Shown here in pieces: positions 10,333 through 27,648 of a stretch of 32,000 nucleotides of DNA. The stretch comes from Chlamydiota bacterium. GTDB taxonomy: Bacteria; Auribacterota; JACPWU01. Position numbers and translations under genes: made by a program. The DNA is taken from NCBI GenBank assembly GCA_016196885.1, contig JACPWU010000026.1, positions 1-32,000 of the forward strand. The letters are read 5' to 3'. The notes beneath the pieces are model-generated. The model saw nothing but the letters and a program-made list of their open reading frames with translations, was not told the DNA's origin and did not search any database. Position 1 is the first letter of the stretch; every line of letters begins with the position of its first letter.

Positions 10333-10407
10333 AAAAAATCCAAGAATCAAAATGAAAAACCAAAATCTAAAATGACTGCACAGCGACCATTTTGGATTTT
10401 CTTCTTG
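10333..10407. repeat. Heptad-like (CAAAATN units) imperfect inverted repeat 3' of the LysM gene
   Basis: The left arm is AAAAATC CAAGAAT CAAAATG AAAAACC AAAATCT AAAATGA. It is followed by CCATTTTGGATTTTCTTCTTG, which is partly complementary. A further direct copy, GAAGAATCAAAAATCA, lies at 10422-10437. Confidence 0.55.
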
Positions 10408-10485
10408 CCTGTGCCTTCCGTGAAGAATCAAAAATCAGTGATCTTTTCGTCTTTTTAAGATATAATAATAAGGAGAGGAGATGCA

Positions 10486-11538
10486 GTGGCAAAAGAAACT
10501 CTTCATTTTGCGGATACTCATTTTGCGAGGTCTTTATTTGCTCATGACGACGAGAATTTAGAGCTCGTTGGCCGCGCCTTGAAAGTCAAGGTCGTGTCGC
10601 GTGGCGATTTCATCAAAATCATTGGAGATCAAGAAGGGGTCAGAAAGGCCAGACACCTCTTTCAAGATTTGGCCAAGATGACGAGTTCTGGAAAAACGAT
10701 TGAGCAGGCTGATATCATCCATGCCTTATCCAATCATGCGGAAAATGGAAGTGAACCTCACGTCATAGAAAATCTTCCTTCGAACGTGATCCACGTTTCA
10801 TCTCGAAAAAATCTCATTTATCCCAAATCTAAGAGTCAGTCGGATTATATCCAAGCGATTCAGAAATATGATTTGGTTCTTTCGGTGGGACCTGCCGGAA
10901 CGGGTAAAACCTATTTGGCTATGGCGATGGCGGTTTCTTGGCTCTTAGAAGACCGCGTTCGCCGTGTCATTCTGACACGACCTGCCGTGGAGGCGGGAGA
11001 GAGCCTAGGTTATCTGCCGGGGGATCTTTATGAAAAAATTAATCCTTACTTGCGACCTCTTTACGACGCCCTTTACGACATGGTAGAGGTGGATCGTATT
11101 CAAAGGTATATAGAGCGTGGTATTATTGAGATTGCGCCTTTGGCCTACATGAGAGGTCGAACGCTCAACGACTCTTTCATTGTGATGGACGAAGCCCAAA
11201 ACAGCACGGTTGAACAGATGAAAATGTTTTTGACCCGATTGGGTTTTAATTCCAAGGTGGTGATTACTGGAGATATCACCCAGGTGGATTTACCTGCTCA
11301 TAAGCTTTCAGGTTTGGTGCATGCGAGCAAGATTTTAAGCGACATTCGCGGCATTAAAATTGTAAAATTTTCGGACAAAGATGTGGTGAGGCATGCCCTG
11401 GTGAGGAAGATCATTCGCGCTTATGAAAGGGATCGCTCACCCCATCCACACAGTGAGCCTTCTCGAAAGAGGGCAGCGAGGACTTCCAAAGGTGCGGAGT
11501 TTACTTCTGAGAATCAGGATGATTTATTGGCAACATGA
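10486..11538 (+). CDS. phoH: PhoH-family ATPase (PhoH/YbeZ)
   Basis: Walker A GPAGTGKTYLA and Walker B IVMDEAQN. GTG start sits 6 nt after AGGAGAGGAG. The stop overlaps the ybeY ATG (ATGA). Confidence 0.93.
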   Translation: MAKETLHFADTHFARSLFAHDDENLELVGRALKVKVVSRGDFIKIIGDQEGVRKARHLFQDLAKMTSSGKTIEQADIIHALSNHAENGSEPHVIENLPSNVIHVSSRKNLIYPKSKSQSDYIQAIQKYDLVLSVGPAGTGKTYLAMAMAVSWLLEDRVRRVILTRPAVEAGESLGYLPGDLYEKINPYLRPLYDALYDMVEVDRIQRYIERGIIEIAPLAYMRGRTLNDSFIVMDEAQNSTVEQMKMFLTRLGFNSKVVITGDITQVDLPAHKLSGLVHASKILSDIRGIKIVKFSDKDVVRHALVRKIIRAYERDRSPHPHSEPSRKRAARTSKGAEFTSENQDDLLAT

Positions 11539-24855: not shown

Positions 24856-27582
24856 ATGTCCTTTCATGAATCTTCTTCCTTAAAGAAAGATGTTCGTTTT
24901 CTGACGACGCTCTTAGGCGATGTGATTCGAGAGCAGGAGGGGGAAGACCTTTTTCTTAAGGTCGAAGAAATTCGAAAACTTGCCAAGAAGATTCGAGAAT
25001 GTCCTACAGACGAGAAGATTTCGGAGCAGAAAAGAATCATTCATCAACTCACCCTTGACGAAGCTTATAAAATTGCCAGGGCCTTTACGATTTATTTTCA
25101 ATTGGTGAACATTGCTGAAGAGCGCCATCGGGTTCGCAGGATCCGGTCTTACGAAAAGGACTTGTCGCTTTTTCAAGAGATGTCCCTGCACAAGCTTTTT
25201 CGGGATTTGTCGGAGGCATCTATTTCGAAGGAAGATGTTCAAGGTCTTTTGAAGGAATTGGAAATAGAATTGGTTTTAACCGCTCATCCGACGGAAGTCA
25301 AGCGCAGAACAGTTTTGGATCATCTCTTGAGAATTTCTTCCGTCTTGTCTTCCCTGGAGAGACTCGATGTGACCTTCCCTGAGAAAGAAGAGGCCGTGAG
25401 CCAAATCAAGGAGACGCTTGAGATTTTATGGCAGACAACAGAGGTGCGTCAAAAAAAAGTTGAAGTTTTGGATGAAGTCGAGCAGACCCTTTTTTATTTC
25501 CGGCATACCATTTTAGAATTGATGCCTCGTCTTTATCAGAAAATAGGGAGAGAATTCGAAAGGTTTTATCAGAAGGAATTGCTTTTATTTCCTTCTCTTC
25601 GCTTTGGGTCCTGGGTCGGGTCTGACCGGGATGGGAATCCGAACGTCACACCTGTTGTAAGCCTAAAATCCGTCATGCTTTATCGCAGGTTGATTCTGAG
25701 ACATTATTTGGGCGTTGTCGAAGATTTCATTCGAAGATTTAGTCAGTCTTTGCGCCGCATTTCTGTGAGTGAGGAGCTTTTGAGCTCTTTGAAAATGGAC
25801 AGAAAAAAGATGCCTTCTTTGGCTCGCGAGATGGAGCGTTTTGAGCCCACAGAAGTTTACCGGAAAAAATTCACCTTCATCCATCGGCAGCTCGAAAATA
25901 CCTTGAATCAGAAAAAGTCTGCTTATCCGAGTGAAGAGGTGTTTTTGAAAGATGTTTTGATCGTGAAAAGGAGTTTAGAAGCTCATCAAGGACATTTTGC
26001 TGCCCGAGGGGATTTGGATGACTTGATTTGCAAGATTAAAATTTTTGGTTTTCATTTAGCAAAACTTGATTTCAGGGATCACACAGGAAAGATTCGGAAA
26101 ACGCTCCAAGAGCTTTTTCCAAAAGAAGCTCTCAATGAAGAGATGATTTTGAAAAAAATAAAATCGGGTGAAAAAATACCTTCTCGCTCTTCTCTTTCAC
26201 CTGACGCCAGAGATATTTTAAGTCAGTTGGCGACCCTTCAAAAAAATCAGGAGCTCAACACCCAGGCTTTTGAAAATTATATTTTGAGCATGACAGAAAA
26301 GGCATGCGATGTGCTTTCTTTTTTCTATTTGGCCCAAGGGAGGAAATTGATCAAGGGGGTCGCAGGGCGTGTCAGGGAATCTCGCGTGGGGATTGTCCCT
26401 CTTTTTGAAACGATTGAATCTTTGGATCATGCGCATGAAGTGATGGATCATCTCTTTCAAAATCCGCTCTATCGCTCTTACGTGACATCCAGGGATGATA
26501 TTCAAGAGGTGATGCTGGGTTATTCTGACAGTAGCAAGGATGGAGGATATTTTGCGGCCAATTGGAAAATTTATGAAGCTCAAAAAAGATTGGTTGAAGT
26601 GGCTGAAAGGCATCGGGTCAAGCTTCGTCTTTTTCATGGTAAGGGAGGTACCATTGATCGTGGGGGAGGGGAATCCCATAAGGCCATTTTGGCTCAACCG
26701 GAGGCGGCCGTAGGAGGCCGTATTAAAATGACAGAACAGGGAGAGGTGGTCTCGCAAAAATATGCGAATCCTGTCATTGCCGAGAGAAATTGGGAGCAGC
26801 TCGTCAGTGCGGTGATGGAGGCCCAGCTTATTTCAAGGAAAAAACTCGAGGCAGAGCCTCGCATTGCGGTTTGGGAATCTCGAATGAATCACTTAGCGGA
26901 TTTGTCTTTCCATTTTTATCGGGAATTCATTCTTGGGACTCAGAATTTTTTAGATTTTTATCACCAGGCAACCCCGATTGAAATTTTGAAGGAGACTCGA
27001 ATTGCGTCGCGGCCTCCCTCTCGGATGGATCAAAAGAGTTTCGGGGCCCTTCGGGCCATCCCTTGGGTTTTTAGCTGGGTGCAATCCAGATACATTATTT
27101 CTGCTTGGTATGGGATCGGTCATGCCTTGGAAGCTTATTTGGATGAGCGTGGGAAAGGAGGTCTTGAGGAGCTTCGAGAGATGTATCGCGAATGGCCTTT
27201 TTTTTCTTCCTTGCTAAACAATGCGCAAGTTTCTTTGGCCAAGACGGACCTTTACATTGCTGAGCAATATGCATCCTTGGTAAAAGATGAGAGTTGTCGA
27301 GAGAAAATCCATGAGAAAATTGCCTTAGAGTACAAACGTTCTGTGAAATATGTTTTAGAAATTGCACAGAGTGACGAGCTTCTCAATTTTCATCCCGTTT
27401 TGAAAGAATCCATTCGCTTGAGAAATCCGTATGTGGATCCCTTGAATTACCTTCAGGTGAGATTCTTGAGAGAATCCCGTTCAGAAAAAGATCGCAAGGC
27501 TGAAGGCTTACAAAATAAAAGGAATGAAATTCTTCTTTTGACCGTGAATGGCATTGCGTTTGGAATGAAGAGTACGGGATAA
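24856..27582 (+). CDS. ppc: Phosphoenolpyruvate carboxylase
   Basis: Ppc motifs VLTAHPTE, GYSDSSKDGG, FHGKGGTIDRGGG and the C-terminal ...NGIAFGMKSTG. I prefer ATG 24856 (MSFHESSSLKKDVRFL) over TTG 24829. Confidence 0.96.
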   Translation: MSFHESSSLKKDVRFLTTLLGDVIREQEGEDLFLKVEEIRKLAKKIRECPTDEKISEQKRIIHQLTLDEAYKIARAFTIYFQLVNIAEERHRVRRIRSYEKDLSLFQEMSLHKLFRDLSEASISKEDVQGLLKELEIELVLTAHPTEVKRRTVLDHLLRISSVLSSLERLDVTFPEKEEAVSQIKETLEILWQTTEVRQKKVEVLDEVEQTLFYFRHTILELMPRLYQKIGREFERFYQKELLLFPSLRFGSWVGSDRDGNPNVTPVVSLKSVMLYRRLILRHYLGVVEDFIRRFSQSLRRISVSEELLSSLKMDRKKMPSLAREMERFEPTEVYRKKFTFIHRQLENTLNQKKSAYPSEEVFLKDVLIVKRSLEAHQGHFAARGDLDDLICKIKIFGFHLAKLDFRDHTGKIRKTLQELFPKEALNEEMILKKIKSGEKIPSRSSLSPDARDILSQLATLQKNQELNTQAFENYILSMTEKACDVLSFFYLAQGRKLIKGVAGRVRESRVGIVPLFETIESLDHAHEVMDHLFQNPLYRSYVTSRDDIQEVMLGYSDSSKDGGYFAANWKIYEAQKRLVEVAERHRVKLRLFHGKGGTIDRGGGESHKAILAQPEAAVGGRIKMTEQGEVVSQKYANPVIAERNWEQLVSAVMEAQLISRKKLEAEPRIAVWESRMNHLADLSFHFYREFILGTQNFLDFYHQATPIEILKETRIASRPPSRMDQKSFGALRAIPWVFSWVQSRYIISAWYGIGHALEAYLDERGKGGLEELREMYREWPFFSSLLNNAQVSLAKTDLYIAEQYASLVKDESCREKIHEKIALEYKRSVKYVLEIAQSDELLNFHPVLKESIRLRNPYVDPLNYLQVRFLRESRSEKDRKAEGLQNKRNEILLLTVNGIAFGMKSTG

Positions 27583-27584
27583 AA

Positions 27585-27648
27585 ACAGTCGTGAGCCGTG
27601 AGGGATGAGTCGTGAGTTTTAAAGGTGTTATTTCTTACTCACGACTGT
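27585..27648. repeat. TCGTGAG-family heptad hairpin, copy 2 (right arm truncated to one unit)
   Basis: Left arm ACAG TCGTGAG CCGTGAG GGATGAG TCGTGAG T (27585-27617). The 19-nt loop TTTAAAGGTGTTATTTCTT matches copy 1 at 18/19. The right arm is only ACTCACGACTGT (27637-27648). Confidence 0.9.

Follow-up and report, generated by a model that had tools for sequence, protein, structure and literature searches.

Heptanucleotide foldback repeats in the operon spacers of a Chlamydiota genome

The intergenic spacers in much of contig JACPWU010000026.1 from a Chlamydiota bacterium (assembly GCA_016196885.1) are built from tandem 7-nt units, commonly followed by a loop and the complementary array. The 32,000-nt stretch that was analysed is referred to below, at its full length, as the window. 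The locus raises the question of how such heptad hairpins arise, whether they are related to one another, and what they do once transcribed. Heptanucleotide repeats were noted in bacteria decades ago, yet no account of their origin or function has gained acceptance. The window holds them at exceptional density, and the contrast between sister genomes that are rich and poor in them lets gain, loss and unit turnover be read directly, because close relatives lack the elements at the same junctions.

A preliminary description of the window, made from the sequence alone, knew of no described repeat class with these properties. This was mistaken, as 7-nt hairpin or paired arrays have been described in cyanobacteria (PMC2670836), Xanthomonas (PMC4692102) and Geobacter (PMC2700814). 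The class as such has been reported before, and what sets the present case apart is its host phylum, unit sequences, density and conserved loops. On balance, the elements are probably foldback repeats of the DNA itself, similar to the short tandemly repeated repetitive (STRR) sequences of cyanobacteria. They would form dispersed families, change by slippage and by copying between arms, and act like the hairpins of repetitive extragenic palindromic (REP) sequences once transcribed.

Heptad arrays in the spacers and their families

The 14 strict intergenic gaps of at least 20 nt between positions 10333 and 27756 (1476 nt in total) were compared with shuffled sequence. Identity at lag 7 was 0.409 (z = 12.7), well above the shuffles, and it was also raised at lag 14 (0.358, z = 7.6) and lag 21 (0.321, z = 4.2). 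Coding sequences gave no periodic signal (lag-7 identity 0.239). A sliding self-identity scan found five to six regions at lag 7 and none at the other lags within 4-11. Tandem Repeats Finder returned period 7 at every listed locus, and all loci of the preliminary description were recovered where it had placed them, with sequences as it described.

Heptad arrays occupy 11 of the 14 spacers (Table 1). Eight of these are hairpins, two are direct-only arrays (the AAGCACG array and E9), and the last is the glyQ-glyS gap, in which arms surround a 135-nt insert. One of the three heptad-free spacers holds the sole classic terminator. The AAAATCA/TGATTTT arms that bracket the glyQ-glyS spacer had been overlooked in the preliminary description, and the ppc locus, which it had counted among the paired arrays, has a right arm (at 27587) of one unit only. 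Unit tables revealed 4-7 constant positions per unit, and a complementary partner is present for 9 of the 12 arrays of the window. With at least three head-to-tail 7-nt units, a mostly intergenic and dispersed distribution, and complementary arrays between cistrons, the arrays belong among the heptanucleotide tandem repeats. Predicted folding energies of the hairpins lie between -14 and -62 kcal/mol, and their z-scores relative to dinucleotide shuffles between -3 and -11.

The genes between the spacers are those named previously: LysM, PhoH, YbeY, DagK/PAP2, DUF502, RecO, GlyQ, GlyS, PpdK, sigma-70, Apt, PEPC and three tRNAs. In addition, a TPR protein and an alginate-export-family protein are encoded in the region. 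PpdK of the window has 100% identity to an NCBI protein labelled Chlamydiae/Chlamydiota and to the product of a Logan contig from run SRR12113387. From about 9.8 kb onward the genes lie on the + strand, which is also G-rich (G 24.4%, C 19.7%), with the exception of tRNA-Arg(CCU) on the minus strand.

Table 1. Heptad arrays and foldback repeats of the window
Feature	Position	Strand	Description
E1 foldback repeat	12..128	+	4 GTTGGAG-type units, 24-nt loop, ~8 CTCCAAC-type units; -36.9 kcal/mol, z -5.6
T-rich heptads TTGAAAT TGCATTT TGATTTT, AAAATCA family	9762..9786	+	after 26-nt repeat module, upstream of LysM gene
E2 foldback repeat, AAAATCA family	10335..10407	+	core AAAATGAC..CCATTTTGG; begins 3 nt past LysM stop; z -3.1
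Direct-only array AAGCACG x5	12022..12056	+	3' of ybeY, without complementary arm
E3 foldback repeat, AATGAAA / TTTCATT	13455..13525	+	begins within final codons of DUF502 gene; z -4.0
E4 foldback repeat, GCnnTCA x5 / GCTGAT x3-4	14254..14337	+	left arm and loop inside recO; z -4.0
AAAATCA-family left array	15204..15238	+	final ~10 codons of glyQ; partner 15375-15402 across 135-nt insert
TGATTTT-family right array	15375..15402	+	closes glyQ-glyS spacer
E5 foldback repeat, GTCGTGA x4 / TCACGAC x4	17553..17645	+	loop GTTTTAAAGGTGTTATTTTTTAC; -55.6 kcal/mol, z -11.1
E6 foldback repeat, TcGTnnT x5 / natACGA x5	20346..20445	+	3' of ppdK; stops 3 nt short of sigma-factor ATG; z -4.8
E7 foldback repeat, TAGGG family	21834..21930	+	3' of apt; perfect 25-bp stem; -56.9 kcal/mol, z -9.3
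E8 foldback repeat, TAGGG family	24572..24679	+	between tRNA-Gln and tRNA-Glu; -61.7 kcal/mol, z -8.8
E9 half element, AGGGnnn x5	24767..24801	+	3' of tRNA-Glu; without right arm
E10 foldback repeat, GTCGTGA family	27585..27651	+	3' of ppc; right arm of one unit; z -3.8

The claim that each locus has a 7-nt unit of its own proved overstated. Units recur between loci: GTCGTGA at 17554 and 27587, TAGGG at 21834, 24575 and 24767, and AAAATCA at 10335, 15204/15375 and 9762. At least five unrelated units are present in the window, and at least three multi-copy families (GTCGTGA/GTCGACA, AAAATCA, TAGGGnn and others) have conserved non-periodic loops. The elements are not copies of one mobile element, as the preliminary description had argued.

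Loops and termini are conserved within families. The 23-nt loops of E5 (17588-17610) and E10 (27616-27638) differ by one base. E7 and E8 have 28 nt of inner arm and loop in common and differ by one whole unit; the common inner arm and loop start reads GTAGGGTTT(T)AGGGAGTAAGGATTTTTATT (positions 21861-21885 versus 24600-24626), and the sequence common to both elements is GTAGGGTTTAGGGAGTAAGGATTTTTATT. The 5' ends of E7 and E9 are identical (ATAAAGCAGGGAT, at 21828 and 24762). Differences between copies amount to whole 7-nt units, and within one element the arms often have unequal numbers of them (4 versus 8 in E1, 5 versus 3-4 in E4, 4 versus 1 in E10).

The same families were found in a sister genome, L083 (GCA_016196915.1). 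The loop pattern of the GTCG family, GTTTTAARRG-N4-ATTT-N-TTWC, lies at 113-135 and 12771-12793 of this locus, and four or five copies of the AAAATCA family, to which E2 belongs, include those at 1330, 3392, 7571 and 13708, with the conserved core CAAAATGACA..TGTCATTTTG. Loops and termini thus recur both within the window and in the sister genome, and copying or dispersal therefore occurs. The elements measure 65-120 nt, with 2-5 copies per family within 55 kb of the two genomes, which agrees with the size and copy range of miniature inverted-repeat transposable elements (multi-copy, 50-500 bp). Inverted arms are present, and no consistent target-site duplication was seen at the borders of the filled and empty sites inspected. 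In a metagenome scan with the GTCG-family loop pattern, none of the matches listed (at least 120) had inverted or heptad flanks, and these are attributed to chance; a plasmid BLAST with E5 returned only a 38-nt match, also at chance level.

These relationships bear on the possibility that each hairpin arose on the spot, a pre-existing short hairpin or terminator being extended by 7-nt slippage and template switching from arm to arm, with no copying between loci. Purely local growth would fit units that differ at many loci, unit numbers that differ between arms and between related copies, and the recurrence of the architecture with unrelated units in unrelated phyla (see below). However, it does not account for near-identical loops and termini at loci as distant as E5 and E10, E7 and E8, or E7 and E9, and loops shared with another genome could not be produced by it. 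Local growth as the whole explanation is therefore improbable.

Filled and empty junctions in related genomes

The feature is not an artefact, since an independent Logan assembly of the same sequencing run (SRR12113387) matches the window through four hairpins, with no mismatch over 17609-24714 and one over 26468-31442. Logan unitig contigs stop inside heptad arms, at the start of L081 (window position 17609) and at the end of L084 (position 13733 of L083). Heptad repeats fragment short-read assemblies of such genomes, and breaks of this kind in hairpins would be expected if the arrays were misassembled or chimeric. This is nevertheless exceedingly improbable, given the agreement of the two assemblies and the like elements found in metagenome-assembled genomes (MAGs) of other projects (L083, L085 and L088) and in many unrelated genomes.

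Four syntenic loci of related MAGs, with PpdK 81-84% identical, were compared with the window, together with two at 70%. L083 is richer than the window, with 18 arrays in 22.7 kb, of which 15 have a complementary partner. In L085, TAGGG-type hairpins are few, and the loop of one is similar to that of E7 and E8. L082, L086 and L087 contain essentially no heptad arrays.

Alignment of orthologous spacers, proposed in the preliminary description as a way to see unit gain and loss, found empty gaps of 0-42 nt in the array-poor relatives. The glyQ-glyS gap is 8 nt in L082 and L085 and 156 nt in the window; the glyS-ppdK gap is 12-42 nt in the poor relatives and 99 nt in the window; and ybeY and dagK overlap or are 6 nt apart in L082 and L085, against 101 nt in the window. 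The reverse is found between the sigma factor gene and apt, where the window, L082 and L085 have 0-5 nt and L083 has 171 nt with a hairpin. Since the same junctions are tiny and empty in poor relatives, the elements are lineage-specific insertions or expansions into operon spacers.

One spacer can also carry different families in different genomes. The DUF502-recO spacer has AATGAAA units in the window and TAGGGCT in L085, and the spacer between tRNA-Gln and tRNA-Glu has TAGGG units in the window and AGTTCAA in L083. At the site of E6, after ppdK, a related ACGAG-type hairpin is present in L088.

Some of the elements reach into the terminal codons of recO, glyQ, glyS and the DUF502 gene. RecO of the window carries an 18-residue tail past the conserved KPLKSRKFL end, encoded by the left arm and loop of E4, which its relatives lack. 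The C-terminus of GlyQ is replaced, its final ten residues being encoded by the AAAATCA array, and the glyS stop codon TGA is part of the first GTCGTGA unit of E5. In practical terms, these elements break short-read assemblies and extend or replace protein C-termini (RecO, GlyQ); gene callers and terminator predictors will be misled by them in MAGs of this kind.

Two further repeats lie at the glyQ-glyS junction. Nested between the AAAATCA-family arms of this spacer is a branched, near-perfect hairpin of 80 nt without heptad periodicity (15272-15351, GAAAGTTCTTTTTGTAGTCGCC...GGCGACTACAAAAAGAACTTTC). An exact 26-nt repeat with a small hairpin, ATGATCTCGAAAGATCATTGAAATTG, is found at 9736-9761 and 15358-15383. 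It forms part of a homologous block of about 55 nt (~9725-9786 and 15347-15402) directly upstream of the LysM gene and glyS, T-rich heptads follow each copy, and it was absent from all 209 comparison loci.

The tRNA junctions of the relatives contain inserts of another kind. In L082 (14349-14620, 17316-17575 and 17669-17880) and L085 (14503-14780), inserts of about 250 nt were found 3' of tRNA-Arg, tRNA-Gln and tRNA-Glu, ending in an att-like duplicate of the tRNA 3' end. Their shared, conserved core reads ATGCnAATCAT..ATGATTgGCGACT..TGGCCGACCGrAG..GTCCGArG..AGGCGCCGA, and they had no Rfam match. The window is devoid of these inserts and has heptad hairpins instead after tRNA-Gln and tRNA-Glu and beside tRNA-Arg. 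L082 and L085 have tRNA-Arg(CCU) on the plus strand, but the gene is on the minus strand in the window (21943-22017) and L083 (15396-15556). The L083 copy lies exactly between complementary heptad arms, an arrangement that suggests inversion by recombination between the arms.

Arm symmetry, orientation and the fate of the hairpins

The left arms of 20 hairpins were aligned to the reverse complement of the right arms without RNA scoring. This gave 508 matches and 105 mismatches, the latter consisting of 27 of G·U type on the + strand, 21 of G·U type on the minus strand (A:C on the + strand) and 57 transversions. The mismatches show no preference for G·U, and hence no sign of selection for RNA pairing beyond the inverted duplication itself; the absence of this bias places the maintenance of arm symmetry at the DNA level. 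Variant units follow a mirrored order in the two arms, and the stem of E7 is perfect over 25 bp; therefore, the arms are DNA-level copies of each other.

All family copies in both genomes are oriented as the genes are, for which the chance is about 1 in 4000 under random orientation. The preliminary description had held that the hairpins are not classic intrinsic terminators, and this was borne out, as a GC-rich stem directly followed by a T run is not the form of the heptad hairpins: only one of the eight, 24572-24679, is followed by a T run (T5). A terminator scan placed the one classic terminator of the window at 24388-24420. In an Rfam search, only the three tRNAs matched at the gathering score, and the permissive mode added only sub-threshold noise from miRNA-precursor hairpins.

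These results are best accommodated by the dispersed, STRR-like foldback repeats introduced above. Arrays would gain and lose units by slipped-strand mispairing in 7-nt steps, and the mirror symmetry of the arms would be kept by copying between them at the DNA level, through intrastrand template switching or gene conversion. Whole elements may be copied to new permissive sites, for which single-strand (HUH/RAYT-type) transposition and hairpin recombination are candidates, with spacers and terminal codons as the only places where they would be tolerated. An element transcribed together with the gene before it would fold to a stable hairpin straight after the stop codon, where it could block 3' exonucleases and partly insulate neighbouring cistrons, in the manner of REP or STRR hairpins. 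REP-like behaviour once transcribed is the most likely outcome, and such an RNA effect would be a tolerated or co-opted side effect, not the reason for the existence of the elements.

The main rival is that the hairpins are selected RNA elements, serving this lineage as terminators, attenuators, processing sites or 3'-end stabilisers, with heptads as the mode by which hairpins evolve. They begin 3-15 nt past stop codons or tRNA 3' ends, are oriented as the genes and are very stable. The hairpin after ppdK occupies the same place as GC-hairpin and T-run terminators of L082 and L085, and stabilisation of transcripts has been proposed for STRR hairpins (PMC2670836). However, the rarity of T runs, the lack of a G·U over A·C bias and the dominance of transversions among mismatches count against it. 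Coding ends are invaded, half elements at 12022 and 24767 have no partner arm, and relatives lack hairpins at the same tight operon junctions, where evidently no signal is needed. Selection at the RNA level is thus unlikely as the primary explanation.

Several points weigh against dispersed foldback repeats as well. The comparison yielded neither a transposase nor a target-site duplication or polymorphic insertion, and mobility is therefore deduced only from family structure and from presence and absence, and neither slippage nor template switching was directly observed. The likeness of loops between different families is weak (mean 5.95 versus 5.53±0.14). At the site after ppdK, occupied by a heptad hairpin in the window, L083 and L088, a canonical terminator is present in L082 and L085, which fits a selected terminator-like role equally well. 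Furthermore, the G-rich + strand is probably the leading strand, and the orientation bias is compatible with transcription, replication or the mechanism of insertion alike, because transcription and the probable direction of replication coincide here. The evidence within the clade comes from about 130 kb.

Other identities were considered for the elements and set aside. The loops resemble AAGG-N-TTTTT leaders, but they are followed neither by a start codon nor by hexamers at the right spacing, as a ribosome-binding site or promoter would need, and the low similarity of loops between families further weakens this interpretation. A telomere-like origin of the TAGGG units was dropped, as the other families are unrelated in sequence. 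Integron attC sites were rejected, since the sole recombinase is Xer-like (79 bits against a 265-bit cut-off for integron integrases), and, unlike integron cassettes, the genes between the hairpins have housekeeping functions and keep their synteny in relatives without hairpins.

Described repeats, other phyla and neighbouring features

Among long repeats, those with heptanucleotide units are the commonest in most genomes, as summarized in PMC4679880, and the excess of heptamers has been attributed to polymerase slippage in a proposal cited there and in PMC4692102. In filamentous cyanobacteria, STRR sequences usually consist of 7-bp repeats and are able to fold into hairpin loops, as in the hupS-hupL spacer, and they may have a part in transcript stability or translational coupling (PMC2670836). 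Three heptanucleotides occur in Calothrix, as cited in PMC4692102. The present elements resemble STRR sequences in their tandem 7-bp units, several families per genome, intergenic or intercistronic placement and complementary arrays able to fold (PMC2670836). They differ in their Chlamydiota host, in a higher density (11 of 14 spacers) and in families defined by conserved non-periodic loops. The published units GGGGATT and GGGAATC have no tandem copy in the window, nor have the STRR units CCCCAGT, TTGGTCA and CAACAGT. Lacking both the published units and a cyanobacterial host, the elements are not STRR sequences in the strict sense. No published report of heptanucleotide repeats in Chlamydiota was found.

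Intergenic heptamer arrays are likewise formed by GGGAATC in Xanthomonas and GGGGA(T/C)T in Nostoc. Xanthomonas genomes contain 70-75 convergent GGGAATC pairs each, with lengths that vary between species; the pairs can form stem-loops or cruciforms, and the repeat type is kept at a site as the length varies (PMC4692102). One unit dominates each of those genomes, whereas at least five unrelated units are found here. The G3N4 pattern of the Xanthomonas unit also confers quadruplex potential (PMC4692102). In the window, the quadruplex motif (at least four G3 tracts, loops of 1-7 nt) is formed by the TAGGG family alone, as four G3N4 repeats at three loci (21838-21869, 24579-24609 and 24768-24798), with that of E7 on the + strand. 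All other families lack it.

In Geobacter metallireducens, eight pairs of five tandem heptanucleotides (class 3, MTYCTGA) lie on opposite strands, one of them between proB and proA; class 1 paired sites in the same genome are octanucleotides (PMC2700814). The class 3 sites are similar to the present elements as opposite-strand heptad pairs with a variable gap, within operons, multicopy and species-specific (PMC2700814). They differ in that only eight pairs of one unit exist, no conserved loop is described, and the sites were read as those of an IHF/HU-type regulator.

Similarly, the arrays of the window could be bound by a nucleoid or single-strand-binding protein with a 7-nt reading register. 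Each unit keeps 4-7 constant positions, and the heptad register is common to loci and phyla. Proposals of this kind have been made (PMC2700814; PMC4679880; bioRxiv 10.1101/2022.06.06.494920), with IHF/HU-type proteins favoured by the Geobacter authors (PMC2700814) and Csp/S1-type proteins by the Beggiatoa authors. However, the constant cores are unlike between families (GTCG, AAAATC, AGGG, TCAGC and GGAG), and no single sequence-specific reader fits because they differ completely. In addition, a 7-bp period does not match the turn of the DNA helix, and no linked candidate gene was found among the window open reading frames (ORFs) scanned. A role as binding arrays is accordingly very doubtful.

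REP sequences, and the REP doublets known as REPINs, which form hairpins and are mobilized by RAYT transposases, are also close to the present elements in several respects. They are small extragenic hairpins, mostly downstream of genes between co-directional ORFs and sometimes in gene ends; several families occur per genome, differ between close relatives and are probably transcribed (PMC3733652, PMC3116915). Each arm of the present elements, in contrast, is a run of tandem heptads, unlike the single imperfect palindrome of REP sequences. The GTAG or CGTC tag that marks one end of the 20-40 nt REP palindrome is not found at the ends of the present elements, which read AAATACTGTCG, AAAGCAGGGAT, AAAATCC and the like; GTAG/CGTC occurs inside some units only. 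No RAYT (IS200/IS605-like) domain was detected among the scanned ORFs of the window, which represents 32 kb of the genome.

Two cases in the present lineage are cargo-like: the 135-nt insert (15239-15374) and the L083 tRNA-Arg gene, both enclosed by arms. They may be likened to the centres of the Foldback transposons of Drosophila, which have long inverted arms of short tandem repeats, unequal arms and a variable centre ranging from a few nucleotides to cargo. These transposons differ in being eukaryotic and much larger, with another repeat period and known transposase partners.

The same architecture with other units was also found in unrelated bacteria. In a member of the Phycisphaeraceae (Planctomycetota; L035, 7796-7883), AAACGCT units are paired with AGCGTTT, and further cases occur in NC10 (L034, two cases), Clostridium (L053), Paceibacterota of the candidate phyla radiation (L047), Bacteroidales (L056) and Heliomicrobium (L073). 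Paired heptad arrays number 28 per 100 kb in the window and 66 in L083, compared with 1.0 (1.36 Mb) at unrelated PpdK loci, the controls being 80 loci of distant phyla with PpdK at most 67% identical.

In 2.03 Mb of unrelated DNA, arrays were searched for a complementary array within 160 nt. A partner was found for 17 of 51 arrays of period 7 (33%), compared with 1 of 102 at period 4, 1 of 81 at period 5, none of 89 at period 6 (2 of 272 for periods 4-6 pooled), 3 of 20 at period 8 and 1 of 16 at period 9. Arrays of shorter period are themselves shorter, and partner detection is thus biased against them; the zero at period 6 is not explained thereby. This count across phyla ties period 7 to inverted pairing and sharpens the question of why the unit is seven bases.

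The preliminary description had invoked either a shared generating mechanism or a shared reader with a 7-nt register. Since the architecture recurs with other units in unrelated phyla, a process that proceeds in 7-nt steps is plausible. A bolder proposal is that heptad foldbacks are a pan-bacterial class, formed by a process in a 7-nt register that builds both an array and its inverted copy. The replisome itself, or a dedicated single-strand nuclease, transposase or reader, may be the agent. The support cited for it is that an adjoining complement is common for arrays of period 7 and for no other period between 4 and 12; the proposal is rather improbable at present. If it were true, this Chlamydiota lineage, with about 80% of spacers occupied and sisters nearly empty, would be a comparative system in which to find the responsible gene.

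Several other features of the window were observed. E1 sits within the integrated-element region. There, direct repeats of AGTGGAAC (1431-1523, periods 8 and 11) flank a small hairpin upstream of the gene for a Xer-like tyrosine recombinase (1547-3220), and may serve the integrated element as sites of recombinase binding or attachment. The leader of the alginate-export-family gene (22946-23047) is conserved in four genomes, unlike other spacers, as ..CATCATAGGyAGCTTTAATmAGGCAAGAAAGGGGGGATGG.., with counterparts in L082 (~15640-15746), L083 (~16520-16632) and L085 (~15780-15888). It had no Rfam match and may be a regulatory leader. The ORFs at 3248-7114 (1288 aa) and 27757-30876 (1039 aa) matched no Pfam or NCBIfam family, and no relative of the 1039-aa protein appeared in the metagenome scan; a 1063-aa counterpart is encoded at the same position in L082. 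Between E10 and the gene for the 1039-aa protein lies a perfect sigma-70 consensus promoter (27698-27726; TTGACA, 17 nt, TATAAT).

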